Shown in pieces: positions 6,792 through 52,999 of a stretch of 64,000 nucleotides of DNA. The stretch is from positions 1-64,000 of the IMG/VR virus record IMGVR_UViG_3300017971_007885, one strand, 5' to 3'. Numbering within the stretch: the stretch's first letter is position 1; the number at the start of each line of letters is the position of its first letter. Origin of the DNA: a virus. A program made the translations under genes and the position numbers. The notes under the pieces were generated by a model. The model made no database searches. It saw only the letters and a list, made by a program, of their open reading frames with translations, and was not told the DNA's origin.

Positions 6792-7187
6792 ATGGAAGGG
6801 AATTTGCTTTTTGGGTTTGACCTGTTTGCGATCGTGTTGGCGATCTGGAAGTTGATCACAACGGAACTTTTCCCCAAGTTGTCAGAACGGTGGAAGCGTG
6901 CGATCTTGGCGTTTTTGATGACCGGGGTTACCGTTTTGATCGGGCTCCAGACCATGGGCCTCATCTTTCCGCCAGAATCACAGCCGGTTGTAACCCTTGT
7001 TTTGACGGCGATCATGGCATTCTTGGCCACTATGGGCTATAGTGCGGAAGTGATCGGCGTGGTCAATGCCACAGTGGACTTGGTGCGTTTTGCGGCGATC
7101 CAAAAGATTGCCGAACCCAGTATGATGGCAAAGGGTACGGAAGAGACGGTGCTAAAGCGCATGATCCGCTATCGGTTGCACAAGTGA
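6792..7187 (+). CDS. membrane protein, holin-like
   Basis: three hydrophobic helices, basic C-terminus, GGGAG RBS. Confidence 0.55.
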   Translation: MEGNLLFGFDLFAIVLAIWKLITTELFPKLSERWKRAILAFLMTGVTVLIGLQTMGLIFPPESQPVVTLVLTAIMAFLATMGYSAEVIGVVNATVDLVRFAAIQKIAEPSMMAKGTEETVLKRMIRYRLHK

Positions 7188-7489
7188 CCGGCTCCGGCAA
7201 TTGGGGCCATCAGGGCCGCCCCGGACAACGGGGCGGCTCCATCCCACGGACTGAAGTGCACCCTATCTTCCGGTATGCTCAAGAACGATTATCAAAGCCG
7301 CCGCCGTGGCCGGACGTGATCGTGCTCAAGTCGGGGCTAAAAGTGCCGGTATGCCGGTGTGATGAAGTGTCAGAAGGCGTGATCTTGGTGGAAAATTGGC
7401 GGCTCATGGGTGCAATGTGGGATTTTAAGATGCTTATGCATGAACTTTGTGGGCCGTGTCCAGAAGAAAGGCAATGGACGAAATGTTAG
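7184..7489 (+). CDS. small protein beginning with the SGNWGH tag (no leader)
   Basis: MTGSGNWGHQGRPGQRGGSIP. Confidence 0.6.
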   Translation: MTGSGNWGHQGRPGQRGGSIPRTEVHPIFRYAQERLSKPPPWPDVIVLKSGLKVPVCRCDEVSEGVILVENWRLMGAMWDFKMLMHELCGPCPEERQWTKC

Positions 7490-7953
7490 AGTTTAGGAGT
7501 GATCGGGGGAAAGAGTGGGCCGCCAGGGCTCATCCAAGCCTAGTTGTTGCCGTGAATCGCCAAGTGGGCGAATTTTGGCGGCGTAATGATTTGAGGCTGG
7601 CACGTGAGGACTGCTCTTCTGCGATGTCTTCTCAAGAAGCCGAAAGCGAGATTCCGGAAGGAGCCATGCCTATCTCGGACATATCCAGGATTTTAGGGAT
7701 GGATCGTGCCACTTTGGCCAGGTGGGTCCGGGCGGGGGATCTTCCGTTGGCCGGCCGGTTTATGGTGAAGCGTAGTAGCCGGATTCATCATCAAGAGGTT
7801 TTTACGTGGCCGGGGTTGGTTGTGCAAGAGATTATCACTCGGAATGCAACCAGGACCGGGCGGACCAAAGAAATCATATGGATCGGTGAAGCGGCGTTGG
7901 CGGATAAGGGATATACTCCATGGCTAGAAGCGGCGGATCTATGTCTGGATTAG
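7474..7953 (+). CDS. HTH DNA-binding protein (excisionase/MerR-like)
   Basis: ISDISRILGMDRATLARWVRAGDLP. Confidence 0.65.
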   Translation: MDEMLEFRSDRGKEWAARAHPSLVVAVNRQVGEFWRRNDLRLAREDCSSAMSSQEAESEIPEGAMPISDISRILGMDRATLARWVRAGDLPLAGRFMVKRSSRIHHQEVFTWPGLVVQEIITRNATRTGRTKEIIWIGEAALADKGYTPWLEAADLCLD

Positions 7954-8531
7954 GTGTGCACGGGTTGTCTCTAAGCGGGAACTGGGAAACTCCGCCAAAG
8001 ATGGTAACGGATCTTGCCCCACTTTTCCCGTGGGATCTTGACGTATGCTCTTTGTGGCCCACGATAGCACCCAAGTTTTACACACCTTGGGACGATGGAT
8101 TATCATTGCCCTGGAAAGGTCTGTGCTTCATGAATCCGCCCTATGGCCGGAAGCGATTGATCGATCGGTGGATGGCCAAAGCTAGGGCGGAAGGGTGCAA
8201 ACTGGGCACCACGGTGGTATGCTTGATTCCGGCGCGTACTAGCACCACATGGTGGCAAGATAACGTGCCTTATGCCAGTATGGTAACGTTTATCCGGGGG
8301 CGGCTCCATTTTGTGCTTCGGGAACACTTTGCCCGTAAAGAAAACGGGGTTTTTGTGCGGGTGCCCACCAAGCAGGGGCCGGCGGGCTTTCCAAGCGCCT
8401 TTGTCGTGTTCGGTGATCTGGAGCGAGAGCAGATTATCAAGCTTGACAGCTATGGCTATACAGATATGTCAATTCTTGATGTTGGCGGCATGTGTGATTG
8501 GCTTTCTTGGGTAAAAAGAGAGTGGAAATGA
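7941..8531 (+). CDS. phage DNA N6-adenine methyltransferase (T1 Dam-like family)
   Basis: WETP, DLDVC, DDGL..PW, FMNPPY, LIPART.T.WW, FIRGRL.F. Confidence 0.85.
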   Translation: MSGLGVHGLSLSGNWETPPKMVTDLAPLFPWDLDVCSLWPTIAPKFYTPWDDGLSLPWKGLCFMNPPYGRKRLIDRWMAKARAEGCKLGTTVVCLIPARTSTTWWQDNVPYASMVTFIRGRLHFVLREHFARKENGVFVRVPTKQGPAGFPSAFVVFGDLEREQIIKLDSYGYTDMSILDVGGMCDWLSWVKREWK

Positions 8532-10423
8532 ACAATTGGCAGGTGCTTCCGGGGCACGTTTTGGAGTGGTTGCGAAAGTTGGCGGCGGGTAGTGTCAATC
8601 TGATTTTCACGAGTCCGCCATATTGGGCCTTGAGGGATTACGGGCTTCCGCCTTCAGTGTGGGGCGGCGATCCGAGTTGTAACCACGTATGGGGCGATCT
8701 TGTGCCGGGGGCGCATCCAAACCAGGTTGCCCAAACCAATACCCGACATTCAGACGCGGCGGCCAATGGCCAAATGGCCAAACGGGGCCAATTCTGTCAA
8801 AAGTGCGGGGCATGGTTGGGTTGTCTGGGGCTGGAGCCCGATCTAGACATGTTTATCAATCATTTGGTTGAGATCTTCAGGGAAGCACGGCGGGTGCTAC
8901 ATCCAAGCGGTACGCTCTGGGTGAACTTGGGGGATTCTTATGTAAGCAATCCTATAAGTGCCGGTGGTAAAAATGAGATCCGAACCGACGATCAAACAGG
9001 TGGCTTTCAAAGGGGGCATTCTAGGCGTGTGACCAGTCGTGGCAATGGGTTGAAGCCCAAAGACTTGATCGGAGTGCCATGGCGGTTGGCGTTGGCGCTC
9101 CAGGCGGATGGTTGGTGGCTAAGATCAGACATAGTGTGGTGCAAAGGTCTGGACCGGTCAGAGCAGGAGCTAGAGGCACAAGCGGAAGTGGAAGCGGCGC
9201 TTGCCATGGTGCGCCAGGCGGCCGGCGGAAGTCTCTTTGGATTATCAAAGCCACTAGATCAGGCTCTGAAACGGGCGGAAAAGGCTGTGGAACGGCTCTT
9301 TATGGTTGGGGCGACAATGCCCGAGAGTGTTAAGGATCGGGTCACCGCAAGCCATGAATACCTCTTTGTGTTTGCCAAGAGCAAAAAGTATCATTGGGAT
9401 AGGCATGCGATCCGGGTGTTGCCAAAACAGTGTAGTGTAGAACGGCGCTTGTATGGGCGGAGTGGCGATCACAAGCATACGGAAGGGGCTCCGGGCCAAA
9501 TGCCACATTCCTTTTTGATGGAAACAGAGATTGGTCAGGGACTGGATAACATGAATTCAGGGGGCCGCAATGCAAGAACGGTGTGGCGTGTGCAAGCCGA
9601 AGGTCACAAGCCCTTCATTTTGCCCGATGGTGAAGAGGTTGCCCACTTTGCCAGTTTCCCGAGAGCGTTGGCGGCCAGGGGGATCCAGGCCGGTACCTCA
9701 GAGCATGGGTGTTGTGCCACGTGCGGCGCTCCATTCAAACGGATTATCAAACCATCCGCCGCTTATGCCGAACTGCTAGGCCAGGACTGGGCAGATTATG
9801 AGCAGGACGCCAAAGAGGGCCGGGGTCATTCTGTAAGCAATCAACGAACCCAAAAGCGTGGGCCGGCGGCCACGGCGGAATACGAAACAACAGGTTGGGA
9901 ACCTACATGTAGGTGCCATGGCGCTCCAGAACCGGGGTTGGTGCCGTGCAAAAAGTGCAAGGGGACCGGGCAAAACCGGAAAGGCAAGAAGCGCCACGAT
10001 GATCATATGCCGGAAGAAGGCCAAAGGGAAAGTAAAAGCCGAGGCCATATCGGGAACTTGGGCAAGAATTCCATGGAGATCTTGGACGATCCATGCCCCA
10101 AGTGCAACGGTGCCGGACAGGTCCAGGGATGGGTATGGAACGAAGAGATTATCAAGGCGTGGCCGCTGAAAAGGCCAGTTGTGCTTGACACCTTTGCGGG
10201 AACAGGGCAAACGTTGCTTGCCGGGCTGGATCTCGGATGTGACGTGATCGGCATTGACTTGTCAGAAAGGTACGCCAGATTATCAAATGCCAGGTGTGAA
10301 GCGTGGCCGGAAGCGTTGCCCGAAAAAGGCAATGCCCGAGAAGAGAACGAAGCAGAAGCAATCCAACTAGAACTTGAACTAATGCGGGACGCTTCAGATT
10401 TTGAAGAGTTGGGGCTTCACTAA
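8528..10423 (+). CDS. beta-class N4-C/N6-A DNA methyltransferase with insertions
   Basis: TSPPYW, LWVNLGDSY, KDLIGVPW, MPESVKDR, HFASFP, VLDTFAGTGQT. Confidence 0.9.
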   Translation: MNNWQVLPGHVLEWLRKLAAGSVNLIFTSPPYWALRDYGLPPSVWGGDPSCNHVWGDLVPGAHPNQVAQTNTRHSDAAANGQMAKRGQFCQKCGAWLGCLGLEPDLDMFINHLVEIFREARRVLHPSGTLWVNLGDSYVSNPISAGGKNEIRTDDQTGGFQRGHSRRVTSRGNGLKPKDLIGVPWRLALALQADGWWLRSDIVWCKGLDRSEQELEAQAEVEAALAMVRQAAGGSLFGLSKPLDQALKRAEKAVERLFMVGATMPESVKDRVTASHEYLFVFAKSKKYHWDRHAIRVLPKQCSVERRLYGRSGDHKHTEGAPGQMPHSFLMETEIGQGLDNMNSGGRNARTVWRVQAEGHKPFILPDGEEVAHFASFPRALAARGIQAGTSEHGCCATCGAPFKRIIKPSAAYAELLGQDWADYEQDAKEGRGHSVSNQRTQKRGPAATAEYETTGWEPTCRCHGAPEPGLVPCKKCKGTGQNRKGKKRHDDHMPEEGQRESKSRGHIGNLGKNSMEILDDPCPKCNGAGQVQGWVWNEEIIKAWPLKRPVVLDTFAGTGQTLLAGLDLGCDVIGIDLSERYARLSNARCEAWPEALPEKGNAREENEAEAIQLELELMRDASDFEELGLH

Positions 10424-10443
10424 CTCTTCCAAAGCGACCAAAA

Positions 10444-10506: not shown

Positions 10507-11709
10507 ATGGATAGACAAGCACGAAGGGCGTGGTTTGGCGGTTGGGTCGTGTTACGCTCCCTTGTGGAAAAGGGATCGGATACGTCTGGAAACTACTTCC
10601 ACAAGGGCATTCCTGGACAACGGGGCGGCTCTTTGCCAGGCGGCGGCCATAGAACGTTAGGCATATCCAGCATTAGCACGGAAGATGAAAAGCGGACTGC
10701 CATTGCCCACCACAGGCGGATGATGGCCAAAAAACGGGCTATGAAGAAGAAAAAGCCCACCCCCAAGCCGAAACCCAAACCGAAACCAAAACCAAAGCCC
10801 AAGCCAGCGATCGATCCAAACGATCCCGAGGCGATCATGGCGGCATTACTCGAAGGCACCAAAGGTCTTCAGGACCAACGGGAAAGTCTTCAATCTACAA
10901 TAGATCAACTAGACAAAGACATGGAGAAGTATCAAGAAGAATACGTGATGCCGATATCACGGCAGATGTGGAGTGCGGGATATAGAAGCCAAGAGTGGGA
11001 AAAACTTGCCAAAGAGATGGAGCCTCACAACGAAAAAATGGAGCAGATGCGCCAGGCCAAATATGCCGCTTTGCGTGAAAAAGGAGAGATTGAAACCCAA
11101 TTACGTGAAGATGGTCTAAAGTACCTGGAAGTGCCCAAGAGTCAGCAAAGCACGGTGCAATTGGATTTTGGCCGGTTGCGCAAAGGCAAGGCAGAAGCGC
11201 AAGCCGGGTTAGATATCTTTAATCGTTTGTGTGGTACCGGTACCGTGAACGGCAAAGTGGCGGGTGTGGCACGGACTTCTAGTAGAAGGGCGCATTATGT
11301 GCCCAATGCATTGGGGAAACTTGGCGTAAAAGAGCCTGGAAAAGTGGGATTATCAACCAAGAGCGGCAAAACCACGATGCTCCACGAGTTGGGCCATTGG
11401 TTTGAGGATAACGATCCCGAAGCACAAAGAAAGGCTTATGCTTTTTTGGACCGGAGAACCAAAGGAGAGCGCCCCCAACGGCTATCAAGGCTCATGCCCA
11501 ATTATCGGTTTAGTCGAAGAGAAGTTGCCAGGCCAGATCAGTTTATGAGTGCCTATGCTGGAAAAGTGTACGAATACGGAAGGCTTGGCCGGTACGCAAC
11601 CGAGATCATATCTATGGGGCTAGAAACGATGTTCACCGATCCGGTTGGAATGGCCAGGGAAGATCCGGATTATATGGGCTTTATGTTGAGCCTACTTAGG
11701 GGAAAATAA
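10507..11709 (+). CDS. tagged zincin-like metallopeptidase A1
   Basis: AWFGGW..EKG.SGNYFHKG tag; PK repeat; coiled coil; HELGHW...YATEIISMG. Confidence 0.8.
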   Translation: MDRQARRAWFGGWVVLRSLVEKGSDTSGNYFHKGIPGQRGGSLPGGGHRTLGISSISTEDEKRTAIAHHRRMMAKKRAMKKKKPTPKPKPKPKPKPKPKPAIDPNDPEAIMAALLEGTKGLQDQRESLQSTIDQLDKDMEKYQEEYVMPISRQMWSAGYRSQEWEKLAKEMEPHNEKMEQMRQAKYAALREKGEIETQLREDGLKYLEVPKSQQSTVQLDFGRLRKGKAEAQAGLDIFNRLCGTGTVNGKVAGVARTSSRRAHYVPNALGKLGVKEPGKVGLSTKSGKTTMLHELGHWFEDNDPEAQRKAYAFLDRRTKGERPQRLSRLMPNYRFSRREVARPDQFMSAYAGKVYEYGRLGRYATEIISMGLETMFTDPVGMAREDPDYMGFMLSLLRGK

Positions 11710-11710
11710 G

Positions 11711-11974
11711 ATGATAGCTGTTGAGTTTATGCCAGGAGCGGCGGGCGAAATCGAGAAAGAGAAACTTGTAGCCGTGATCGATGGCTGGAAGTGGGCCAGC
11801 AAAAGCAAAAAGCTGGAAGATTACTTGAATGCGATGCTTGATCCGGATGGCCCAAGCGGTGCCGATCCACAACCGGAACGGACGGCGGTGGATATGGCGA
11901 TCAAAACACTCGGTGGTGGTAAGATTATCAAAGAAGACCAAGGCCCACCCCCGCCGGCCGGGGCCGTGCTATAG
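11711..11974 (+). CDS. small partner protein B1 (putative immunity/inhibitor)
   Basis: VAVIDGWKWAS..LDPDGPSG family, 4 paralogs in window. Confidence 0.75.
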   Translation: MIAVEFMPGAAGEIEKEKLVAVIDGWKWASKSKKLEDYLNAMLDPDGPSGADPQPERTAVDMAIKTLGGGKIIKEDQGPPPPAGAVL

Positions 11975-11983
11975 GAGCAGGTC

Positions 11984-13135
11984 ATGCGCACCGTGCAAGC
12001 GAGCAAGCAAGCCTTATACGCCTACCTTTTGGCCGCCTTGGTGGCCAAGGGATCGTCCACGTCTGGGAACTGGGGCCACAAGGGCGTGAAGGGAAGGCGG
12101 GGCGGGTCGGCTCCAGGCGGGGGCCATACTCAACTTGGGATCACGGGTACCACTTCACCGGGCGGCAAAGAGAAGATTATCAATCTTTACCGGAGGCAAC
12201 AAGCCGAAAAAAAGAAACCCACGGCGGAACAGGCACGGAACAAAATAGCCAGGATAGAAAGTGCTACCCAGGCCAAGATCGACAAGCTGAAGGCCAAACA
12301 GAAGGCCATCTTACAGGCGCGTGAAGATTACATGGACGATCATGGCCTAGAAGACCTTTACGATCGGTATAGGATTGCCAGGAGAGCGGAAGGGGCTGAA
12401 TCCGATCCGGACGTGATCGCTATGCGTGAAGAGATCGACCAACATGATGCGAACTTGAGCGACATGTGGGATGAACACCAAGCACTTGGCAAAGAGCAAC
12501 GGGCTCTTGAGAACGGCGCGAGAGAAGCAACCATGAAGGTGTTGGAAGTGCCCAAAGATCAACAAGCCAAGGTGCAATTGAGGACCAAAGATCCGACGAT
12601 CGAGAAAACAGCACAAAAGGGGTTGGATATTTTCAACCGGTTGTATGGTCGTGGTACTATGGATGGTACTGCGGTGACCGTGGATACTCATAACAGGTCA
12701 AGGGCCGGGTACGATCCCCTTGTACTCGGAGGAACAGGCCGGATCTTGCTTTACTCTTCAGGGCCGGGCATACTGACTTCAACATCTAGCGCCACATCTA
12801 TGCTTCATGAGATGGGTCATTGGTTGGAAGAGCGAGATCATGGCGTGTTCCAAAAGGCCAAAGCGTTCTTGTTGAGCAGGACGCAAAAAGATCCGGCTCA
12901 GAAAATGGCCGATCTAAAGCCGGATCGTGGGTATGCAGAATACGAAATCACAAGGCCGGACAGGTTTATAGATCCCTACGTTGGCCGGGCTTATGTCGAA
13001 CCAGGGGTGGGACACTATGCCACGGAAATAGTGTCTATGGGGATGGAACTCTTTTTTACCGATCCGGGCCAGTTTGCCAGGGACGATCCGGGCCACTTTG
13101 ACTTTATATACAACCTCATGAGGGATAGGCCATGA
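11984..13135 (+). CDS. tagged zincin-like metallopeptidase A2
   Basis: AKG.SGNWGHKG tag; HEMGHW...YATEIVSMG. Confidence 0.8.
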   Translation: MRTVQASKQALYAYLLAALVAKGSSTSGNWGHKGVKGRRGGSAPGGGHTQLGITGTTSPGGKEKIINLYRRQQAEKKKPTAEQARNKIARIESATQAKIDKLKAKQKAILQAREDYMDDHGLEDLYDRYRIARRAEGAESDPDVIAMREEIDQHDANLSDMWDEHQALGKEQRALENGAREATMKVLEVPKDQQAKVQLRTKDPTIEKTAQKGLDIFNRLYGRGTMDGTAVTVDTHNRSRAGYDPLVLGGTGRILLYSSGPGILTSTSSATSMLHEMGHWLEERDHGVFQKAKAFLLSRTQKDPAQKMADLKPDRGYAEYEITRPDRFIDPYVGRAYVEPGVGHYATEIVSMGMELFFTDPGQFARDDPGHFDFIYNLMRDRP

Positions 13136-14280
13136 TCGATTATCATTCAAGGACAACGGCACTTGGTCCTAGACTGCGCTCCAAGTACAGGGCATGGTTT
13201 TTGGGATGGTGGGTGCTTGACGCTCCGGATGTGGTTGGTAAGGGATCGTCCAAGTCGGGCAATTGGAGGCACAAGGGCCGCAAGGGACAACGGGGCGGCT
13301 CCCTTCCAGGGGCTGGACATGGCGCGATCGGGGTGATGATAGGCGATACTCCAGAGCGAGTGGATGAGCAGATCCGAAGGCATAAAGAGGCCCAGGCGAG
13401 TGCTAAAGAGGCCAAGCGGGCACGGGCCAAAATGCTCCGGGACGTGGCTCCGATTATCAAACAAATATCAGCGGCCAAGGCCAGGGCGGCGGCTCTGGAC
13501 AAGCAACGATCCGAATTGACCACGGAACATCTTATGCCGCTTTATGACCAGATGCAGGAACTCAGAAGGGCCGGGCAACAAGATAGCGCCGAATACGCGG
13601 CGCTTCAGGAACAGGCCAAGCCCTATGAAGCACAAAAAGCCCAATTATTCAAGGGCTCTAGCTCAGAGCTAAACTATGCCAAAAACTTACAATTGGAGTT
13701 GCGAAACAAGGCGGTTGAAAGTCTATCCGTGCCTGAAGGGCAACGGGCCAACTTTAACTTAGACATTCAGCCGGGCAAAGACCTGGAAGATACGGTGGGC
13801 GTGGGTGCGCAAGTCTTCAGCCAATTGGTGGGCACCGGTACCATGGACGGCAAAACTTTGAAAGTGGTGGAAACGAACAAAAGCCGGGCCTCTTACAACG
13901 ATGGTACCAAAACCGCTTCTTTAACATCCTACTCCAAAACGGCTTCTGTGGTGCACGAGATGGGCCATTGGTGGGAAGATCACGACAAGCAAGCTTTTGG
14001 GAAGGCGCTTGCATTTTGGGAACGGCGCACCAAGCGGGAAAGCTTCCAACAACTAAACAAGATCTTTCCTCATGAAGGGTATCCCGATCACGAAGTCACC
14101 AAGCCGGACAAATTCATGGATCCCTACTCGGGCAAGGTGTACACAGAGGCGGGCAAGGGGATCACGGCTACGGAAATCCTGTCCGTGGGACTGGAAAAGA
14201 TGTATACCCATCCCGTGGCCTTTGCCAGGAACGATCCGGATTACTTTGACTTTATGTATAGCACACTGAGAGGTAAGTAA
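13132..14280 (+). CDS. tagged zincin-like metallopeptidase A3
   Basis: AWFLGW..GKG.SGNWRHKG; HEMGHW...ATEILSVG. Confidence 0.8.
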   Translation: MIDYHSRTTALGPRLRSKYRAWFLGWWVLDAPDVVGKGSSKSGNWRHKGRKGQRGGSLPGAGHGAIGVMIGDTPERVDEQIRRHKEAQASAKEAKRARAKMLRDVAPIIKQISAAKARAAALDKQRSELTTEHLMPLYDQMQELRRAGQQDSAEYAALQEQAKPYEAQKAQLFKGSSSELNYAKNLQLELRNKAVESLSVPEGQRANFNLDIQPGKDLEDTVGVGAQVFSQLVGTGTMDGKTLKVVETNKSRASYNDGTKTASLTSYSKTASVVHEMGHWWEDHDKQAFGKALAFWERRTKRESFQQLNKIFPHEGYPDHEVTKPDKFMDPYSGKVYTEAGKGITATEILSVGLEKMYTHPVAFARNDPDYFDFMYSTLRGK

Positions 14281-14281
14281 C

Positions 14282-14542
14282 ATGGTTGCTGTAGAATTCC
14301 CTTTTGGCTGGAGCGATAAAACCCAGAAGCCGGGCACCGTGGCCGTGATCAAAGATTGGCGGTGGGCAAGCGAAGATGAAGCCTTTGAAGCTGTTTTGAA
14401 CGCTACGCTTGATCCGGACGGCCCAAGCGGCTCCATTCCCCAACCCGACCTATGGGCGGCTAACCAGGCGATCGAGCAGTTTGGCGGCAAGATTATCAAA
14501 CAGGAATTGCCCGAGTACCCGCCCAAGGGGATGATCCTATGA
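14282..14542 (+). CDS. small partner protein B3
   Basis: paralog of B1. Confidence 0.75.
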   Translation: MVAVEFPFGWSDKTQKPGTVAVIKDWRWASEDEAFEAVLNATLDPDGPSGSIPQPDLWAANQAIEQFGGKIIKQELPEYPPKGMIL

Positions 14543-15783
14543 TTTCCAGAACCAGGAACGGCAGGGCACTTAGTCCTGAACTGCGCTCCAAGTACAGGGC
14601 ACTTAGTCCTGAACTGCGCTCCAAGTACAGGGCACTTAGTCCTGAACTGCGCTCCAAGTACAGGGCATGGTATTATGGTTGGCGTGTGGTACAACGGGGA
14701 TCGTCCAGGTCCGGAAACTGGGGCCATAAAGGCGTAAAGGGAAGGCGCGGGGGAAGTGCTCCGGGCGGCGGCCATAGGGTGATCGGCATTGGCCCAGAGG
14801 CTGAAGACTGGATGGTTGACACGGCTCTTTTAGAGTATCGCAAAGAGCGGGCCGAAAGAGCGGCCAGGAAAAAGAAGGGAGAAGGGCCAGAGCTCCGGCG
14901 CAAACTTGCTAAACAAGCTGAACAACAAGAAGCCAGGATCAAGGCTTATGGTGATGCAGCGGAAGCCGCATGGGAAACGATGAAGGGCCATGAGACGGCC
15001 ATGAATTCAGCGGCTAGAAACATCAAGTACATCAGGGAGCAAGGGCTATCCGAAGGGGCGCTTGAGGCGCAACGAGAAGTGTACTTTGCCGAGAAGGCGG
15101 AAGTGGAAAAATACTTGGGCATGTATCGGGAGTGGCGGGAAAAAGAATATGAACTTGGAAGAGAAAAGAATGCTGCCCAGATGGAACTTTTAGCCGTGCC
15201 CAAAGACCAACAAGCCAACGTCAAGCTGACCACCAAGATCCGCAAAGGTCGAGCGGAAGCCCAAGAAGGGCTTGATGCCTTTAACAAGCTTTGTGGAACC
15301 GGGACCGTGAACGGCCAAAAGGTGGAAGTGAAGCGCACCAATAGAAGCCGATCGTTTTACCGGGACAAGCTGACACGTACTTATGCCGGCTTTGGTGCCG
15401 GGGGCAAAGATATGACCGTGACGGTGGGCGGTGAAGTGCACTTGTCCAGTTGGAGCAGTGCAAGGACGATGATCCACGAGATGGGCCATTGGTTGGAAAA
15501 TCGAGATCCCAAGATCGCCAAGCGGGTCCAAAGCTTCCTTGCCAGGCGAACCAGGGGCGAAACGGCACAAAAACTATCTGTGCTAACCGGAGATTCAGCC
15601 TATAAAGCTTACGAAGTGGCCAAGCCCGACAAGTTCATGGATGCCTATGTGGGAAAGGTGTACGGCACCGGCTCCGAAGTGATCTCGATGGGACTGCAAT
15701 ACATGTTTAGTGGGGCGGCCAAGTTCGCAAAGCAAGATCCTGATTTCTTTGACTTTATGATCTCAGTGCTCAGAGGACAGTAA
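14539..15783 (+). CDS. tagged zincin-like metallopeptidase A4
   Basis: 3x RALSPELRSKY; AWYYGW..QRG.SGNWGHKG; HEMGHW...SEVISMG. Confidence 0.8.
   Translation: MISRTRNGRALSPELRSKYRALSPELRSKYRALSPELRSKYRAWYYGWRVVQRGSSRSGNWGHKGVKGRRGGSAPGGGHRVIGIGPEAEDWMVDTALLEYRKERAERAARKKKGEGPELRRKLAKQAEQQEARIKAYGDAAEAAWETMKGHETAMNSAARNIKYIREQGLSEGALEAQREVYFAEKAEVEKYLGMYREWREKEYELGREKNAAQMELLAVPKDQQANVKLTTKIRKGRAEAQEGLDAFNKLCGTGTVNGQKVEVKRTNRSRSFYRDKLTRTYAGFGAGGKDMTVTVGGEVHLSSWSSARTMIHEMGHWLENRDPKIAKRVQSFLARRTRGETAQKLSVLTGDSAYKAYEVAKPDKFMDAYVGKVYGTGSEVISMGLQYMFSGAAKFAKQDPDFFDFMISVLRGQ
14562..14667 (+). repeat. 33-bp tandem repeat x3.2 (cagggcacttagtcctgaactgcgctccaagta)
   Basis: perfect copies at 14562, 14595, 14628. 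Confidence 0.95.
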
Positions 15784-15784
15784 A

Positions 15785-16045
15785 ATGATAGGCGTGCGCT
15801 TTGATGGACCATTATCAATCGAAGGGAAAAAGACCGGGCGGGTGGCCGTGATCAACGGTTGGCAGTGGGCAAGCAATGACAAAGCTTTTGAAGCCGCTCT
15901 GAATGCCGATCTTGATCCACAAGGGCCGGGCGGTGAAGTGCCCGATCCAGATATGCAAGCGGCGCAAGCGGCGATCAAACGATGGGGCGGTAAGATTATC
16001 ATTCACGAACCAAGGCCATATCCGCCCAAGGATGCCAAACTATGA
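15785..16045 (+). CDS. small partner protein B4
   Basis: paralog of B1. Confidence 0.75.
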   Translation: MIGVRFDGPLSIEGKKTGRVAVINGWQWASNDKAFEAALNADLDPQGPGGEVPDPDMQAAQAAIKRWGGKIIIHEPRPYPPKDAKL

Positions 16046-17139: not shown

Positions 17140-17142
17140 ACT

Positions 17143-40492: not shown

Positions 40493-40512
40493 GCATCATA
40501 GAAAGATTGTCA

Positions 40513-42553: not shown

Positions 42554-42568
42554 GGGAGCAGGTGCATA

Positions 42569-43147
42569 ATGCAACACGGCAGGGCCATGGTGGCATTCTT
42601 TTTGCCCCAGTACGCGAGTGAACAACTGGACTCATTCAAGGAGCACTTTCCGCCAGGCTCTGAAGTGACGCCGCTTCAGGATTATCATATCACCTTGGCC
42701 TATATGCCGGAAGTCAAGGATAAAGAGCTTTTGCGTGAAGTAGTCCGGGGGTTTGCACAAAACGAGCACCCAATATCCGGACAGATCGGTGGTATCGGGC
42801 GTTTTGCCCACGATGAAAAGGGTACAAACCCATTTTACACGTCTTTTGATGCTCCAGTGTTGCCAGGCTTCCGCCAAAGGCTAGTAGAAAAGCTTGGCCA
42901 ATACGGCATTGCGGTTTCAGAATTGCACGGCTTTATTCCACATTGCACCATGGCCTACATTCCAGCCAACACACACAACCCGGCCCTTGTGGTGCCATAT
43001 ATCGGGGTCACTTTTGATTGCATTTGGTTAGCATCCGACGATGATCGGGAACGGTTTCCGTTGGTATCCACGACGATGGAGCTAAAAAAAAGACTCGGGC
43101 CAAGAGCAAAAGCCCTTGCAGGAGTGATAGAGTATGCCAAGTCCTAG
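42569..43147 (+). CDS. 2H phosphoesterase (2'-5' RNA ligase/Acb1-like)
   Basis: two HxT motifs: YHITLAY and PHCTMAY. Confidence 0.8.
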   Translation: MQHGRAMVAFFLPQYASEQLDSFKEHFPPGSEVTPLQDYHITLAYMPEVKDKELLREVVRGFAQNEHPISGQIGGIGRFAHDEKGTNPFYTSFDAPVLPGFRQRLVEKLGQYGIAVSELHGFIPHCTMAYIPANTHNPALVVPYIGVTFDCIWLASDDDRERFPLVSTTMELKKRLGPRAKALAGVIEYAKS

Positions 43148-45573: not shown

Positions 45574-47745
45574 ATGCCCGACACAAAGATATCAAATTTG
45601 ACACCGTTGGCTACCGCCGTTAAAGGTGACGTGCTCCCGATCGTCAACGGGGGCGCAACCAAAAAGATCACGGTTGAAGACTTGTTGCGTTACGAGAACG
45701 TGATCACGGTTGCCAAAAGCGGGCCGGCGGACTATACAACTATTGAAGCGGCTCTTGCTGTAGCGGCGGCTCGTGATGTGATCATGGTTGCGCCGGGTAT
45801 CTATTCTGAAAACAACCCTTTGACCGTGCCCGATCAGGTCACGATCATGGCACTCGGGGAGCAGAACACAACCCGGATAGAAGCAGCCAATGCCAACCAG
45901 GATCTGTTCACGAGTGCTAACTTTTTTATCGTCACGGGCTTTTCTATTGCCGATGTAGCTGGAACTGGTTGGATCATTGACGTAAACGCCGCCGATGCCG
46001 TGATTTTTGAGGACTGTGTTGTCTATGAGTGTGAGCAGGGATTCAGAACGTCTCACGTGTCCGCCACGCTGACCTTGGGCAATATATTCTTTTTGACCTT
46101 GGGCGTTACCAAGACCGATCCGTGCGTTCGGAACAACGCCGGAAACATCACCGTTGCCGGTGGGCGTATTGGCGTAGGCTCTTTGATCGGTTGCGTTTTC
46201 AATGTGGACGGCGCAAATGCGATCACCACCGTGCTTCACTTTCTGACATTTGAAACCACCGTTGACTATGTTGTGGTAGCTGACAACGGGGCACGCTCTG
46301 TTTTTACCGGGTGTTCGTTTGTGGGAATGAACGATGCGGCTTCTTTGGCCGGTGGAAGCGATACGCGATTTGTCGCCACGTCTGTCTTTTTGGCCGGGAA
46401 TGATGCGATCCGAATTGAAAACAGCGGAGCCAACACAAACTTTGTAGGCCAAGGGATCACGGTTGAGTCAACGACTCGCTACGATCTCAACATTTTGAGT
46501 GCAACGGGTACAGTATCGGGGTTTGGACAGTCTGCGCTTGATCAGATGAACTTTGTTACGGGAGCGCAGTTTACAGCCAGCTTTGTGGACTTGAAAGAGG
46601 ACGACGAAGGGCTGAATGTCGTTGGGGAACTTCACGTTGGCATACCGGAACTTGGCGCAGAATCGGTTATGGGCCAGGGCGATAGTTACACACGTGGTAT
46701 GCTTGTCTACACTTATAATCCAGCCGGGCCGGTGTGGGCTGATGTTAGTGTCGCCGCCCGATCTGCTTCCGGGTCCACATTCACATTTCCGGCAGTGGCG
46801 GCAAATAACGCGATCTATGTTGCTTCCAGCTTGGCGGATGCTTCGGACTATTTGCACCACGATGGAATCAAGGCCAGCATTACAACCGCCGCCGTTTTGG
46901 GTGGTGGGTCGATCGTGGTCGAATACTGGAACGGGGCGGCCTGGGTGCCCATTGATCACATGTCCACGCTATCAAATGCCCCCTATACTCAGTATGGAAA
47001 GAATATCTTTGAGCGGACAGGCTCCGAACAAATCCGCTATCCGTTGGCCTTTGTATCGTCTTGGACCAAAAACGATCCAGTGACGCCGGCCATTGGCACA
47101 AATTACTTTTGGATGCGTTTCCGGGTTGTAGGCGGGATTACCACGGCACCGATCTTTGAGCAATTCAAGCTACACACCGATCGCTTTGAGGTTAACGCTG
47201 ATGGCGTCACGGAGTATTTTGGCCATGCCCGCTATCCGCAAGATTTGAGACTAGACTATCGGGAACTAAGCGGCTTTTCTCCAGGCAATCAGAATGTTGC
47301 TTATGGAACCGGGGTCACGTTTGTTTATATCAATAACAAGTTTGTAGATGGCAAAAAGGACGGATTTGGTGTTTACGTGACCATTCCGACAGGTATCGAC
47401 ACAAGTTTGCCACTCCGCTTTGCCTGGAACTGGTATGCAGACACGGCCAATGCCGGGGATGTGGAATTTACTGTAGAAGATATACAGCTTGAGGTAGGTG
47501 ATCTGATAGATGGCACGGCCGGCACCACAACTTATACCACGGTTGAGACTGTCGGGGCTGGAACCAGATACGTTTTCCGCCAGTCTTACCTTGACCTGGA
47601 TATCTCGGATTTGGTGCCTGGGGAAGCCGTGGCCATCGCTCTTTATCGTGATGCAACAGCACCCAATGATCCGCCTGATACACTAAACGGTGATGTTGTG
47701 ATCTTTGGTGATATCCGGGCGATCGGTTACTTTTGGCGGCCATGA
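45574..47745 (+). CDS. beta-helix (pectinesterase/pectin-lyase-like) spike protein
   Basis: N-terminal KISNL...KKITV domain; TVAKSGPADYTTIEAAL...VAPGIYSE. Confidence 0.7.
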   Translation: MPDTKISNLTPLATAVKGDVLPIVNGGATKKITVEDLLRYENVITVAKSGPADYTTIEAALAVAAARDVIMVAPGIYSENNPLTVPDQVTIMALGEQNTTRIEAANANQDLFTSANFFIVTGFSIADVAGTGWIIDVNAADAVIFEDCVVYECEQGFRTSHVSATLTLGNIFFLTLGVTKTDPCVRNNAGNITVAGGRIGVGSLIGCVFNVDGANAITTVLHFLTFETTVDYVVVADNGARSVFTGCSFVGMNDAASLAGGSDTRFVATSVFLAGNDAIRIENSGANTNFVGQGITVESTTRYDLNILSATGTVSGFGQSALDQMNFVTGAQFTASFVDLKEDDEGLNVVGELHVGIPELGAESVMGQGDSYTRGMLVYTYNPAGPVWADVSVAARSASGSTFTFPAVAANNAIYVASSLADASDYLHHDGIKASITTAAVLGGGSIVVEYWNGAAWVPIDHMSTLSNAPYTQYGKNIFERTGSEQIRYPLAFVSSWTKNDPVTPAIGTNYFWMRFRVVGGITTAPIFEQFKLHTDRFEVNADGVTEYFGHARYPQDLRLDYRELSGFSPGNQNVAYGTGVTFVYINNKFVDGKKDGFGVYVTIPTGIDTSLPLRFAWNWYADTANAGDVEFTVEDIQLEVGDLIDGTAGTTTYTTVETVGAGTRYVFRQSYLDLDISDLVPGEAVAIALYRDATAPNDPPDTLNGDVVIFGDIRAIGYFWRP

Positions 47746-48962
47746 TGACTCAAAATCAACTTGTTTTTTCAAACCAACCCGATTCATCGATCTTTGTTTG
47801 GAAGGCAATGGGAGATCGGTGGTATGTGGCCATCGTTTCAAAGGCAACCACGGACCGGGTTGGCGAACTGGTTACAATCAAGGGAATGGACTTTGCGATC
47901 GACGTTGCAAAGCGGCACAATTATCATTCCGGGCTCTACATCGAACATGCGGTGCCATGGACACGCATAGGGCGATCGGTGCGCGAAATGCGAATTGGAA
48001 AGCTGTGGATCGAGATCGGGAAGTTTTATAAGAACCCATTAGCAAAACTAGCCTATAAGGCATTGCAAAAGGCCAAAGACGGCGCGATTAGGTTGAGCGT
48101 GGGCTTCTTAACGCCAGCAAAGCAACGGAAACTTGGCGTATATACAAAGCTTTTGAAGTTTGACACGAGTTTGGTGCTTAAACCGGCTCACCCAGAAACA
48201 CACATCATAGTGGGAGGTAACAAAATGAGTGATCTAATGCAACGGGTCTTGAAACTGCTTGGCCCTGAGAATCCGGAAGAGGAAGAACAGGCCATGGCAA
48301 TGCTCAAGGAGTTGTTCACCGGATCGAAGTCCATGGACGGTGATCTTGCCTTAGTGGGGAAGGCCGGAAAAGGCAAGGACGACGACGACAAGAGCGGTTT
48401 CCCGGCTTTTCTGAAGAAAGTCAAAGCCGGGGACAAAGAATTGTTTGGCATGCTGGAAAAGATGGCTGAAGAGATGCCCGACAATGAAGCTCTGAAAAAG
48501 GCTTGTGCGACGATGAAGAAACGCATGAGCGAATACCCGGCCATCGAAGAGAAGCAGGAACCGCCCCCGGAAGAGGAAGAGGAAGAAGAAGAGGCAGTGG
48601 CCGCCAAAACAAAGAGCGGTGAAGGGGTCGAGACTCTGCTTACCGCTGTAGCGGAGATCGTGGACGCCAGGCTTGTCCCGATCACGGAAGCCCTTGCCGG
48701 ATTATCAAGCACGCCGGGCCAGGTCGTGGAACTGACCGAACGGGTCAAGAACTTGGAAGCCGGGGACCAGGCGGCGGAAGTGATCGCAGCTTTGGTCAAG
48801 CGGTTGCCTGACATGGCTTTTGCTCAGTCCACCCGGCCATCCGACGATGCTGAAGACGTTGGCGACACGGCGGACTTGATCGAAGAGCTTCAGAAACGGC
48901 TTGACTTTGGCGACGATGAACCACAGCACCCACTTGCGCATTTTATTGGCGCGGGCGAGTAG
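47742..48962 (+). CDS. prohead protease-scaffold fusion
   Basis: DRVGE, EH, LSVGF, SLV..PA HK97-protease-like motifs; acidic helical C-half; upstream of capsid. Confidence 0.7.
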   Translation: MMTQNQLVFSNQPDSSIFVWKAMGDRWYVAIVSKATTDRVGELVTIKGMDFAIDVAKRHNYHSGLYIEHAVPWTRIGRSVREMRIGKLWIEIGKFYKNPLAKLAYKALQKAKDGAIRLSVGFLTPAKQRKLGVYTKLLKFDTSLVLKPAHPETHIIVGGNKMSDLMQRVLKLLGPENPEEEEQAMAMLKELFTGSKSMDGDLALVGKAGKGKDDDDKSGFPAFLKKVKAGDKELFGMLEKMAEEMPDNEALKKACATMKKRMSEYPAIEEKQEPPPEEEEEEEEAVAAKTKSGEGVETLLTAVAEIVDARLVPITEALAGLSSTPGQVVELTERVKNLEAGDQAAEVIAALVKRLPDMAFAQSTRPSDDAEDVGDTADLIEELQKRLDFGDDEPQHPLAHFIGAGE

Positions 48963-49026: not shown

Positions 49027-50472
49027 ATGGATCAAAACACATTATCAATGCTTGTCCGGTTGGCTGAATCGGGCCAGTCAGAAACCCTACTGAACCTCTT
49101 GGGCAATGACATGGGCGGTGTGGCTGTGCGCCGGAAAGCACTCACCAACACTCTTTTGTACGGCAATGGTGGGTTGTTTACCGTTTGTGCGGATGACAAC
49201 TTGATCAACGCATCGGTGAACGATGATGGCATTTGTGCCGTTATTCCCTGGAAGCCCACCACGGCGGATGTGCGCCGCCAACCCGTGATCACGGCGATCG
49301 GACACTTGGGCGGCTACGCTCAACCAACCGATCAGTGTGGCGATCCCCCGGTCAGCGATTGGCGGGGGTGTGAACTCGAATGGTGCATTGGCCGCATCCG
49401 TGGCCGATCCCCCGAGTATGACCGGCTGGATCTTGGCACCCGATGGTGCGAGAAATACCCGATCTTTCGCACCTTTGGTAGTTTGACCGTGGGCGGGCAA
49501 ACGATCGCTCCCACTGGCACCCAGATCCAGAATGATGCAGAGTGGGGAGCCGTGGCCGCCGCCATCCAGGTCCGCCAGGTGCTTGGACGCTGGATCTATA
49601 CTGGCAACCGGTCCACAAACCGGAACATGTTCGATGGGTTCCAGATCCTGATCAACACCGGTTATACCGATGTTCAGAGCCGGATCCCGTGCCCCGCCGT
49701 TGACTCGAAGATCGAGGACTTTGAAAGCGACTGCATCAGCGACGAAACGAGCGGCAAGAACATCTATGCCTACCTGGAAGCCGTTGTGCAACGGATCATC
49801 CAGAGGGCACGCCAGGCCGGTCTAGGCCGTCCCAAAGCGGAAGATATGGTGCTTGTGATGCGCACCGAGATGGCAGAAGCCTTGTATGAGTATTGGGCTT
49901 GCCAGATCGGGCCGTGCTCCACCACGCTCCCAGTGGCTGGAACGGCAACCAACCAAGTGCAGTTTGTGTCTTCCGACTGGGCACGCCAGTTTGCCGATGA
50001 CCTACGCCGCCGTGAAGTGCTCTTGGTGCACGGTATGTACATCCCGGTTGTGACCGACGATTACATGCCCTTTACCAATGGAGCAGGGGTCAATAACCGG
50101 ATCTCGGATATCTACATCTTGACGCTTCAGATCTCGGGGCTGCCCAACGTTTACGGTGAATTCCAGGACTTCCGGGCGGGCGTGGGTGACTCGATCACCG
50201 GCTTCAATGAAGAACTTTACGGTGGTCAGCCAACCGATGAGGGCCGCTTTTACGTATGGCAAGAGCGAACCAACACTTGCTTTGACGTGAGGCTTGCCGT
50301 GAAACCACGCTTGGTTGTGGCTATGCCCTTCCTTTGTGGCCGGGTATCCAACGTTTGCGTGACGCCGCTTAACCCGCCGTTGTCGAGCTATCCGCCAGAT
50401 GGTAGCCCGTATTACCCCGATGGTGGCGCTTACGATGCCACGTATGACGCCGGGGACTGCGTGTATAGCTAG
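49027..50472 (+). CDS. major capsid protein (Cys-rich)
   Basis: strong GGAGG RBS, follows scaffold, YTGN...FDGF, DIYIL HK97-fold-type motifs. Confidence 0.7.
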   Translation: MDQNTLSMLVRLAESGQSETLLNLLGNDMGGVAVRRKALTNTLLYGNGGLFTVCADDNLINASVNDDGICAVIPWKPTTADVRRQPVITAIGHLGGYAQPTDQCGDPPVSDWRGCELEWCIGRIRGRSPEYDRLDLGTRWCEKYPIFRTFGSLTVGGQTIAPTGTQIQNDAEWGAVAAAIQVRQVLGRWIYTGNRSTNRNMFDGFQILINTGYTDVQSRIPCPAVDSKIEDFESDCISDETSGKNIYAYLEAVVQRIIQRARQAGLGRPKAEDMVLVMRTEMAEALYEYWACQIGPCSTTLPVAGTATNQVQFVSSDWARQFADDLRRREVLLVHGMYIPVVTDDYMPFTNGAGVNNRISDIYILTLQISGLPNVYGEFQDFRAGVGDSITGFNEELYGGQPTDEGRFYVWQERTNTCFDVRLAVKPRLVVAMPFLCGRVSNVCVTPLNPPLSSYPPDGSPYYPDGGAYDATYDAGDCVYS

Positions 50473-50485
50473 AAGGGCGGCTTGA

Positions 50486-51334
50486 ATGAGCCGGAGTGAT
50501 AGGGGAAGCCCTTCCGGGGCTTCCCCCACTGTACACCTTGTGGGCAAGCGAGATCCGTGGATCTTAGGCAGGTATGCCGATATCTTGACCGGGCGGCTTG
50601 GTTGGTCAATCGGAGAACGTCCAAAAACGGACGTGGCCTTGAACCTCTTTTGGCCTTACTTGTCGATCATGGTCGGGGATCCGCTCCCACAGACCAAGAA
50701 CGCCGCTTTTTTCACGCACCTTGAAGAAGCGGAAAGAGGCCGTACCCAGTCAAAAATAAACCGATGGCATAACGCGGCTCAAGTGGTGGACCTGCGGATC
50801 TGCATGACTGCCAAATACAGGGAGATCTTGGCTCCCCATGGGCCAACGGTGCACGTGCCGGTACCCATAGAAGAGCAGTTTGCGCCCTGCAAATTGCGGG
50901 TGGGTGTGGCCGGGAAGGTGTATGATTTATCTCGCAAGGGTGAAGACCTGGTGCGGCAATTGGTCAACACCAAAGAATTTGACGTGATCGGGGCCGGAGA
51001 AGGATGGCCGTGCCCCACAAAGTTTTACAAGTGGGCGGATATGCCCAAATTTTATCAATCGCTTGATGTGTTCCTGGTTACGTCTGAAGTGGAAGGCGGG
51101 CCGGTAACGATGCTAGAGGCGCTTAGATGTGGCGTGCCGGTTGTGGCTCCGGCACACGTGGGAATGGTGGATGAATTCCAGGTGGCCACATACAAGCGGG
51201 GCAATTTTCAATCAATGCTTGCCCGGCTCCGGACCTTCCAGTTGGGAAGGATAAAGCGATATCAGAGCGTGGCCAATAGAACGGTGGAAAACTTTGCGCA
51301 AGCCTGTCAACAAGCCATCGAACGGGTATGCTAA
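50486..51334 (+). CDS. GT-B (GT4-like) glycosyltransferase
   Basis: RKG; DVFLVTSEVEGGPVTMLEALRCGVPVV (E-x7-E). Confidence 0.85.
   Translation: MSRSDRGSPSGASPTVHLVGKRDPWILGRYADILTGRLGWSIGERPKTDVALNLFWPYLSIMVGDPLPQTKNAAFFTHLEEAERGRTQSKINRWHNAAQVVDLRICMTAKYREILAPHGPTVHVPVPIEEQFAPCKLRVGVAGKVYDLSRKGEDLVRQLVNTKEFDVIGAGEGWPCPTKFYKWADMPKFYQSLDVFLVTSEVEGGPVTMLEALRCGVPVVAPAHVGMVDEFQVATYKRGNFQSMLARLRTFQLGRIKRYQSVANRTVENFAQACQQAIERVC
50502..50526 (+). terminator. stable hairpin after capsid gene (possible attenuator)
   Basis: GGGGAAGCCC/GGGCTTCCCC 10-bp stem; no U-tract. Confidence 0.45.
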
Positions 51335-51983
51335 CACAGGGGCCATGTTTGTGGCTTATGGTCAGAAAGCGATCCAATGTTTCTATGATTGTGCGGAATC
51401 GCTCCGAGTGCATCACCCGGATATGCCTATAGTGGTGATCGGGGATCAATCAATCGTTTTCCCGAATTGCACGTGCCTACAGGAGCCAAGCACCGATATC
51501 GGAGCCAGAAGCATCAAGACTCAGATTTGGCGGTATGTACCCGATGGTTGGACATATGCGCTATACATGGATGTTGACACACTTGTATTGAAACCGCTAG
51601 ATCGTTTCTTGCAACCATTGCTTGACGGTTGGGAACTGGTTATGGTCCGGGATGAGTTGGCGGATGTAGTGGATCGGTGCCGACTCAAGAACAATGAAGA
51701 AAAGCAACACATCAAGAACGCTTTTGGGACCGGGGAACTAGTCCAGTTTGCGGGCGGTTTGTTTTCTTGGCGTATATGCCCAACAGTGCAACGTTTTTTC
51801 GAGATATGGCATGCAGAGTGGGGCCGTTTCAGCTTCAGGGATCAAGGGGCTTTGGTGCGGGCCTTGGCACTTACGCCGGTCAAACTTTGGCCACTCGGAT
51901 GGGCGGCCAATGCTTCCAAACGAGAGCATGCGATCGAAGTATGGCATATACACGGCAAGGCCAGAATGGCAGGTGCTCAATGA
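51294..51983 (+). CDS. GT-A (GT8-like) glycosyltransferase
   Basis: LYMDVDT (DxD), GG.F, RDQGAL..AL, H.HG. Confidence 0.75.
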   Translation: MRKPVNKPSNGYANTGAMFVAYGQKAIQCFYDCAESLRVHHPDMPIVVIGDQSIVFPNCTCLQEPSTDIGARSIKTQIWRYVPDGWTYALYMDVDTLVLKPLDRFLQPLLDGWELVMVRDELADVVDRCRLKNNEEKQHIKNAFGTGELVQFAGGLFSWRICPTVQRFFEIWHAEWGRFSFRDQGALVRALALTPVKLWPLGWAANASKREHAIEVWHIHGKARMAGAQ

Positions 51984-52999
51984 CTTGGTTACAAGCATGG
52001 ATTATCAATCAAGATCCGGTTGCCCAGTTGGCCGTAGCGGAAAAAGGTGGGCCGGGCTCCGGGAACTGGGGACACGCCGGAGTAAAGGGCACTCGTGGCG
52101 GATCTGCTCCTAAACGGGGCAAAGGTGCGGCCATGTCTTTGGCTACTGGCAAGGATTGGGAAGAGCGCCAGATGCAAACCATAGAAGATGCTTACTTGGC
52201 AGATGCTGAAGATAGTTCCAAGCGACTTTATCAAGCCGCCGTGAAGGGTGGCAAGCTGTCTACCAAAGAACAAAGAAAGGATGCCCTGAAGAGCTACAAA
52301 GCACTCAAAGAATTAGACCGGCATAGCATGTATGAGCCGATGGATGACTATCCGGCTATGTCGGAAGCCCTTGCCTATACTGTTAGTCATGGCAGTTTGA
52401 AACAAGCAAGGGCCAACTTCCAAGAAATTGCCGATCTGTTGGTAGATCCAAAACGTAAAGAAGAAGAAGAGTGGAAAGTGCACCGGGTGGATGCCATAAC
52501 ACGGGCCAGGGGTGAACGAGTGCCGGGCCTAAAGAAACAAGCAAAGCCAAAGCCGGTTGAGGTAGTAAAGCCGTCCGGACCGGAAGCAAAAAAGATCTTG
52601 GATGCCAAACCGGTCACGGATGACTATTATATAAACCGCCCAGTAAGCCGGAGAACGATCGGGGGCGGGGTAACAAGCGAATGGCAGAAGGTCAAGGCCA
52701 AGCCGGTTAAGGTAGCGGGCTATGAAGATCAAGATTTTTTCATTCACCGGCCATTGGGCTCCAGAAAAAGCGGTTGGACTATCTCAGAAGGCCGCACCGG
52801 TACATCACTTGTTTTACAATACGGCGGCACTCAGGCCAAAGCCATCCGAAAGCTTACGACTATACTGGACAAAATAAAGAAAGCAGGGCGGACCACGTTT
52901 CAGAACAAAATAACCAGTGCCGTGAACGCCAGTACACAAAGAGGTCAGCCTTTGCAATCGCCCCGCTATGGCGGAACAGGGCCAATATATAGGGGCTAG
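51980..52999 (+). CDS. tagged basic protein (putative internal virion protein)
   Basis: LQAWII...AEKGGPGSGNWGHAGVKGTRGGSAP. Confidence 0.7.
   Translation: MTWLQAWIINQDPVAQLAVAEKGGPGSGNWGHAGVKGTRGGSAPKRGKGAAMSLATGKDWEERQMQTIEDAYLADAEDSSKRLYQAAVKGGKLSTKEQRKDALKSYKALKELDRHSMYEPMDDYPAMSEALAYTVSHGSLKQARANFQEIADLLVDPKRKEEEEWKVHRVDAITRARGERVPGLKKQAKPKPVEVVKPSGPEAKKILDAKPVTDDYYINRPVSRRTIGGGVTSEWQKVKAKPVKVAGYEDQDFFIHRPLGSRKSGWTISEGRTGTSLVLQYGGTQAKAIRKLTTILDKIKKAGRTTFQNKITSAVNASTQRGQPLQSPRYGGTGPIYRG

Follow-up and report, generated by a model that had tools for sequence, protein, structure and literature searches.

The stretch of DNA analysed here (the window) comprises positions 1-64,000 of the 100,482-bp IMG/VR record IMGVR_UViG_3300017971_007885, which is classed as a provirus and has a CheckV completeness of 92%. 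A first-pass annotation of the window had described a short Gly-rich motif, SGN[WY]xHxG-x2-G-x2-GGS (referred to as the tag), near the N termini of 11 proteins with differing C-terminal regions (the cargo), and had proposed it as a candidate capsid-loading signal. When the whole record was scanned with this pattern in all six frames, exactly 11 copies were found, all on the + strand and all in the genes that had been named. The 36 kb beyond the window held no additional copy, and the strict pattern did not occur in any of 100 shuffled sequences.

Seven of the tagged genes lie in a methyltransferase/effector block at 7-19 kb. The first of them, 7184-7489 (101 residues), has a GTG start that overlaps the stop codon of the upstream gene. 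Its tag (7184-7240) stands at the very N-terminus, the product beginning M-TGSGNWGHQGRPGQRGGS, with TGSGNWGH after the GTG start, so that it looks like a naturally pre-cut form. The other six are tandem zincin paralogs (10507-18557), located at 10507-11709 (400 residues, tag at 10570-10632), 11984-13135 (383 residues, tag at 12047-12109), 13132-14280 (382 residues, tag at 13240-13302), 14539-15783 (414 residues, tag at 14695-14757), 16042-17139 (365 residues, tag at 16090-16152) and 17397-18557 (386 residues, tag at 17490-17552). In PHROGs, these paralogs hit phrog_33618 and a group annotated as 'minor head protein' (10507 hit both, the latter being phrog_19443), and their catalytic domain has relatives fused to MuF (P0245, P0247) or to a zeta-toxin kinase. 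When a structure model of 16042 was compared with the PDB by Foldseek, just weak metzincin and lethal-factor rows were returned (E 0.2-0.5).

The remaining four tagged genes are found in the packaging/head module, as had been claimed. Three of them sit between the gene for the large terminase subunit (TerL; 32361-33779, +; phrog_2, phrog_5653) and that for a portal-MuF fusion protein: 35444-35977 (177 residues, isoelectric point (pI) 10.5, tag at 35492-35554), 35974-36693 (239 residues, pI 10.2, tag at 36046-36108) and 36690-37727 (345 residues, tag at 36768-36830). The fourth, 51980-52999 (339 residues, pI 9.8, tag at 52043-52105), follows the likely major capsid gene at a distance of 1.5 kb. 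For 35444 and 51980 the open frames begin further upstream (at 35381 and 51767), and the internal ATGs were taken as starts because they fit the family alignment. Each of the 11 proteins has a single cargo region. The cargo consists of six zincins with HE[LM]GHW, one zincin of a second type with HEIGH (36690) and three basic proteins of pI 9.8-10.5, in agreement with the two metallopeptidase types and basic domains originally noted. Phage_Mu_F (PF04233) gave no match in the ten tagged proteins scanned (all except 7184).

The portal-MuF protein (38237-40492, +; 751 residues) carries no tag. It was recognised from Atlas features (score 0.97, 183 shared features), 21 of its 30 Atlas matches carrying Phage_portal with or without Phage_Mu_F; Pfam and PHROGs gave no match for this gene. 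The likely major capsid protein (49027-50472, +) is SU10_MCP-like by the same means (score 0.97, 185 shared features; 23 of 30 matches in the SU10_MCP set). Directly upstream of it lies 47733-48962 (+), which resembles a fusion of a divergent S78-type protease with an acidic scaffold region, although the evidence is weak. The hhalign match to S78 domains has an E value of 0.01 with a probability of just 4%, and aligns DRVGE/DRVGD, the His, and LSVGF/WSIGF with the S78 proteases. The acidic helical C-terminal half and the position of the gene fit the protease-scaffold reading, and no Pfam model matches it.

The 11 tags were aligned (alignment A1), and nine residues (S, G, N, H, G, G, G, G and S) were found to be invariant. 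A K or R occurs five residues upstream of the tag Ser in 10 of the 11 copies, gene 7184 being the exception, and [LA]PG[GA]GH follows the tag in eight; both features had been picked out earlier. So had an upstream Trp-rich leader, [AG]W[FY]xGWx[VTA], which is clear in 8 of 11; in 11984 and 51980 it is degenerate, and 7184 lacks it. The leader of 14539 owes its greater length to a perfect tandem repeat of 33 bp (14562-14667, 3.2 copies) that triples the peptide ALSPELRSKYR and looks like a very recent duplication. The invariant Ser and Gly residues are each encoded by several codons, all four Gly codons being used at some positions and both TCN and AGT for the final Ser. Nucleotide identity among the 11 copies averages 62%, with pairwise values down to 46%. 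Since synonymous codons vary freely, the conservation of the tag is at the peptide level.

The structure of the paralog 16042 was predicted by AlphaFold2 (AF2), with a predicted local distance difference test score (pLDDT) of 88 and a predicted template-modelling score of 0.82. The model shows a long helical hairpin (residues 54-178) followed by the zincin domain (189-363). Residues 1-45, that is, the leader and the tag, had a mean pLDDT of about 50 (46-52 in blocks of 10 residues), and are thus predicted to be disordered. The possibility that the tag is a portion of a folded domain unrelated to packaging, raised in the first-pass annotation as a point against its own proposal, was rejected, as the tag is disordered in the model and precedes many unrelated folds. 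A role as pseudo-substrate in the zincin cleft was also rejected, no such docking being seen in the model.

A profile made from A1 was used to survey other phages, together with the cargo domains that they carry. A word-indexed search returned at least 751 proteins, and an exhaustive search of 1.84 billion representatives returned 2,757 clusters (E<=1e-3) with up to 10 copies per protein. Most of the top matches are polyvalent proteins of 800-2,500 residues with 2-10 internal copies. The logo of 280 internal copies, [KR/D/E..]-G-G-P-G-S-G-[NH]-[FHWY]-G-H-x-G-[RVI]-P-G-x-[VR]-G-G-S-[AL]-P-GGG, is a sharp island of 23 residues whose flanks are unconserved save for hydrophobic residues just upstream. 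Among the 11 copies of the window, the tag of 36690 comes nearest to the general consensus RGGPGSGNWGH. No family of Pfam, PHROGs or NCBIfam covers the motif, and it was not found when the literature was searched by motif strings.

The position of the tag in these proteins is regular. Tags are separated by a median of 238 residues and sit between Pfam domains, none of them inside a domain. The final tag is at least ~138 residues from the C-terminus in 95% of the proteins and is never near a C-terminus, while 76 of 117 proteins start with a tag. The tag is a header, not a trailer, of modules. The domains often found upstream of tags (carriers) are Phage_portal, Phage_portal_3, Phage_Mu_F and Peptidase_S78_2. 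Only 1 of 13 proteins with a carrier domain starts with the tag, compared with 75 of 104 without one (p=1e-5). Behind the tags are ART-PolyVal, ADPrib_exo_Tox, NUDIX, LigT/2H, Zeta_toxin, GNAT, Ntox50, zincins of the ATLF, M90 and SprT types, and ddrB-ParB.

Gene contexts in the relatives were taken from retrieved related loci and our own clustering of open reading frames. In 54 of 78 fetched loci, 2-6 tagged genes lie on one strand, and at least 46 of the 78 also hold a recognised head-module gene; a common order is ParB-TerL-portal-MuF-tagged genes-tagged zincin-DUF2213. One cargo module was found behind the tag on a portal protein in one locus (L074) and as a stand-alone protein with leader and tag in two others (L047, L062), which shows that the tag goes along with the module behind it. 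Tag-bearing contigs were binned mostly with Clostridia, and others with Dehalococcoidia, Omnitrophota, Succinivibrio, Sulfuricaulis and four archaeal metagenome-assembled genomes, though binning errors are possible. One tagged locus (L086) belongs to a prophage of Clostridiales bacterium CCNA10 (AP018533.1).

The residues before the tag were then compared, counting from the invariant tag His, so that position -10 is the residue before G-G. At -10, entropy is 2.39 bits globally and 0.30 within a genome, a ratio of 0.13, which is the lowest found; ratios at the other variable positions are 0.26-0.56. Hence, the -10 residue is uniform within a phage and differs between lineages. It is D in all portal_3/MuF/DUF2213 loci, K or R in the clade of the phage studied here (whose joint reads x-K/R-G), and E, L, A, N or F elsewhere, and the three residues before it follow a pattern particular to each class. 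E-class tags have a hydrophobic residue at -12 in 90% of cases, mostly L or I, giving [LI]-x-E-GG. The cleavage consensus of the T4 prohead protease gp21 is [LI]-x-E. Peptidase_S77, the gp21 family, was detected above the Pfam cut-off (E about 1e-16) in three of five E-class records, and in none of 10 records of the K/R and D classes (five each; five of the ten with CheckV completeness of 99-100%). In the three phages that encode S77, all 15 tags follow hydrophobic-x-E, 14 of them with L or I. In the record that includes L016, the S77 gene lies at around 17.5-18.0 kb. It may be noted that giant phages have an AXE prohead-protease cleavage motif (PMC10052503). These lineage-specific residues look like a prohead-protease cleavage site.

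A twelfth gene, 41465-41767 (+), was related to this set by its leader. Its product, a protein of 100 residues that includes MPYPNEHAARL, lacks the tag, and its final 10 residues are the cargo leader AWFMGWHVTR, after which comes the stop codon. In the AF2 model it forms a small beta/alpha domain with a disordered tail, and the notion that the leader folds onto its own domain was therefore discarded. By fold, the domain was matched best by an uncultured-phage protein annotated as 'Prohead protease' (E 1e-8, template-modelling score 0.78). In one relative (L070) the same domain is fused to Peptidase_S78, and in two others (L016, L028) it is joined to a region resembling a scaffold and to the tag; relatives of the protein end in other short W-containing tails. 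This phage has two natural half-sites, 7184 starting at the tag and 41465 ending with the leader, which place a functional boundary between leader and header. They also suggest a docking role for the W-rich leader, in a protease-associated protein as well as in the cargo. Because in this phage the leader, and not the tag, is common to the cargo and the prohead-protease-associated protein, it is at least as good a candidate for a loading signal as the tag. As a separate observation, another conserved leader, the amphipathic KDISSEVLTxLFE, precedes the joint in tagged genes of three E-type loci (L016, L024, L040), where it corresponds to the W-rich leader of the phage studied here.

The capsid-loading proposal is partly supported by these results. 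A link of the tag, as an independent and portable peptide on unrelated cargo, to the interior of the phage head was borne out: tags join cargo to portal, MuF and prohead-protease domains, relatives of the zincins are fused to MuF, and the zincins match a 'minor head protein' PHROG. That tagged proteins are capsid cargo is well supported by these sequence comparisons, and their association with the head, judged by fusions and synteny, is highly probable. The tag did not behave as a simple N-terminal signal, being mostly internal, present in 2-10 copies and kept when the cargo is fused to a portal protein. A pure loading signal would leave the internal copies and the joint unexplained; a pure cleavage site would leave 20 invariant residues on stand-alone genes unexplained.

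The reading with the best support is a disordered N-terminus of three parts, namely a leader acting as propeptide and docking peptide, a protease joint and a retained header, on cargo that would be carried in the head and probably injected. We give this arrangement an even chance. The Gly-rich peptide would then probably be both a label and a cutting joint for phage-head proteins. The motif, its conservation, position, predicted disorder, carriers and lineage-specific joint residues are results of the analysis, whereas docking, cleavage, packaging and injection are what we infer. The short leader, which in this clade holds AW[FY]xGWxV, may dock the precursor onto the assembling head core, as the T4 capsid-targeting sequence does. 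At the joint, which in this phage is hydrophobic-x-x-K/R followed by G-G/S, the head-maturation protease would cut, and we consider such cleavage somewhat more probable than its absence. The cut would remove the leader or, in other phages, release the module from its carrier (portal, MuF or protease); it may also split a module from the preceding module of a polyvalent protein. The header, of ~20 residues (G-x-G-S-G-[NH]-aromatic-G-H-x-G-x-x-G-x-x-G-G-S-x-P), would stay on the mature cargo and move with the module as modules shuffle between phages. Its job may be that of a prime-side docking element for assemblin-type proteases, or of a handle for retention or ejection.

Several observations weigh against this three-part arrangement. 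Seven of the 11 tagged genes are placed outside the head module, and some leaders span 5-8 residues, too short for docking. Pfam protease and capsid models found no match anywhere in this genome, nor does Pfam find a protease in complete genomes of the K/R type; the protease of this phage is not securely identified, the candidate 47733 resting on a weak alignment. The three S77-positive records may be close relatives, the correlation then being a single event, and so the match between S77 and [LI]-x-E is suggestive but no proof. The uniform -10 residue could reflect descent and a lineage-specific binding partner rather than the P1 residue of a protease site. A plain cleavage site needs far fewer than 20 invariant prime-side residues. 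All tag carriers come from uncultured phages: megablast and tblastn searches of GenBank phages gave no tag match, to which low-complexity masking possibly contributed, and no chain in the PDB has the tag, the single match (a formate dehydrogenase) being due to chance.

Four other explanations were weighed against the same evidence. In the first, which is that of the first-pass annotation, the header itself would be the capsid-loading signal and would bind some conserved feature inside the procapsid (on the portal, the protease, the scaffold or the capsid protein), with no cut needed. The header is the single element common to all cargo across thousands of phages. Gene 7184, which has the header without a leader, the many proteins with leaders of 5-8 residues only, and the usual start at the header in proteins without a carrier domain would all suit such a signal. 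Yet the header is kept between portal and cargo, where an address is superfluous, repeated internal copies are redundant for loading, and the lineage-specific joint residues and the match of [LI]-x-E with S77 are left unexplained; we consider this explanation unlikely. The reverse proposal, that the tag is only a processing site, cut by the prohead serine protease or by the co-encoded zincins while carriers or leaders do the loading, agrees with the position of tags between domains and with joint residues that fit protease specificity. Zincins, moreover, are the commonest cargo here and are tagged in 29 of 79 loci, and zincin-mediated processing of polyvalent proteins has been predicted by Iyer et al. 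(PMC5512222). Nevertheless, stand-alone single-module genes keep the tag with nothing to separate, 20 invariant residues far exceed what known prohead-protease sites need, 50 of the 79 loci show no tagged HExxH protein, and AF2 does not put the tag into the zincin cleft. On balance, we regard processing alone as quite unlikely.

A structural role without cutting was suggested by the Gly that recurs at intervals of three residues between G(-4) and G(+8), the frequent Pro, and the presence of a tag on every module, the first included. The tags could form a polyproline-II or collagen-like joint that bundles the cargo or guides its exit at ejection, by binding each other or the portal/tail channel. 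Against this, the Gly-X-Y run has five triplets, which is short for a stable triple helix, AF2 yields no ordered structure, the portal-MuF protein here has no tag to pair with, and the lineage-specific residue before the tag is left without a reason. This makes an uncut joint improbable. As phages shuffle the modules that follow the tag, a patch of DNA homology that serves to recombine cargo cassettes, with a functionless peptide, was also considered. It was rejected as extremely improbable by the free synonymous variation, including a final Ser encoded by both TCN and AGT and nucleotide identity as low as 46%. Two further candidates did not hold. Self-cleavage by Asn cyclisation (NPTH-like) was rejected since the Asn is conserved in 56% of copies only, with His at this position in 32%, and DNA binding through an AT-hook (GRP core) is unlikely, R and P being replaced by V/I/T and K in this phage.

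The three-part arrangement can be compared with known systems. Encapsulin cargo-loading peptides are short, disordered and terminal, and address diverse cargo into a shell of HK97 fold; they differ from the tag in having another consensus, in being usually C-terminal, and in not being known to be cleaved or to be repeated inside polyproteins. The T4 internal proteins IPI-III and Alt carry an N-terminal capsid-targeting sequence that is removed by gp21, and P1 DarB has an N-terminal packaging signal. Here a short N-terminal peptide common to unrelated anti-host proteins takes these into the prohead core, after which small N-terminal peptides are cleaved off (PMC3012670, PMC9958956, PMC9024508); the P1 Dar proteins share no consensus (PMC9024508). 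Prohead proteases in general remove short N-terminal propeptides (PMC3012670, PMC9958956, PMC9024508, PMC10052503). As in T4, a short N-terminal peptide is common to unrelated proteins of this phage, head association being deduced from fusions and synteny, and as in T4, the E-type relatives combine a gp21-like [LI]-x-E joint with a Peptidase_S77 gene. Unlike those phage-specific signals, the header is near-invariant over 2,757 clusters and is also found internally in long proteins. Being placed after the predicted cut, it would remain on the mature protein.

The cargo is like that of the polyvalent proteins (Iyer, Burroughs, Anand, de Souza, Aravind 2017, PMC5512222), whose repertoire comprises zincin metallopeptidases, ADP-ribosyltransferases, NUDIX, 2'-5' ligase/2H, zeta-toxin kinases, GNAT and ParB, as well as MuF/portal fusions and a predicted proteolytic processing. 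Seven zincins of this repertoire are in the window and other domains of it are in tagged relatives. Two or more unrelated effector domains on one polypeptide are found in the tagged relatives (2-10 modules) but not in the window, where, unlike in the giant polyvalent proteins, each module is a separate gene. Term searches of that paper (PMC5512222) did not reveal any account of this junction motif. MuF polymorphic toxins (Jamet et al. 2017, PMC5576092) are similar in that variable toxic or enzymatic C-terminal domains are borne by a head-internal carrier, and relatives of the zincin domain are indeed fused to MuF. They differ in that no MuF domain occurs in the tagged proteins scanned, MuF here being fused to the portal protein. 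No linker or motif was found by a term search of that paper (PMC5576092).

Other genes of the window may be mentioned here. The neighbours of the tagged genes in the 7-19 kb block are a helix-turn-helix gene, two DNA methyltransferase genes (Dam-like, and N6_N4_Mtase of 641 residues; 7920-10423) directly upstream of the zincin array, and a SLOG-family (YspA/YAcAr) gene at the end of the array (18562-19092). Four paralogous genes of 85-87 residues interleave with the six zincins (11711-11974, 14282-14542, 15785-16045 and 17143-17400). They are about 50% identical with 29 invariant columns, the two that were scanned gave no Pfam match, and their products could be chaperones, inhibitors or immunity-like partners. 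An HNH endonuclease gene (40465-41517) lies between the portal-MuF gene and 41465. It is probably a mobile insertion, because the counterparts of its flanking genes are adjacent, and slightly overlap, in the relative L011. An RNA-ligase-like gene (42518-43147; PHROG 14859) within the head module is conserved in seven related loci, and a PAPS-reductase-like gene (28406-29449; phrog_424, E 1e-53) is situated ~3 kb upstream of the large terminase gene.

Proteins carried in the head and co-injected with the DNA are the first weapons of a phage against host defences, and they are hard to recognise because they have no common family. The kind of system is known, both as capsid-targeted, protease-processed internal proteins and as polyvalent proteins; a universal header and the split-gene form are not described in catalogues or in the searchable literature. 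What the window adds is this split form, with 11 separate genes, a W-rich leader common to a protease-associated protein, and half-sites that locate the joint. A header that is near-invariant in 2,757 clusters would allow injected proteins to be discovered from sequence only, and would mark the module boundaries in giant polyvalent proteins, while the link between the joint residue and the type of head protease offers a testable handle on cargo processing. A broader idea, that capsid-carried, injected proteins have in the header a universal and portable label, read by a conserved feature of the tailed-phage head in bacterial and archaeal viruses alike, is possible though doubtful. If it is true, the injected effectors of thousands of uncultured phages could be listed from sequence alone with one profile, and proteins of choice could be loaded into phage heads by means of the leader-joint-header cassette.

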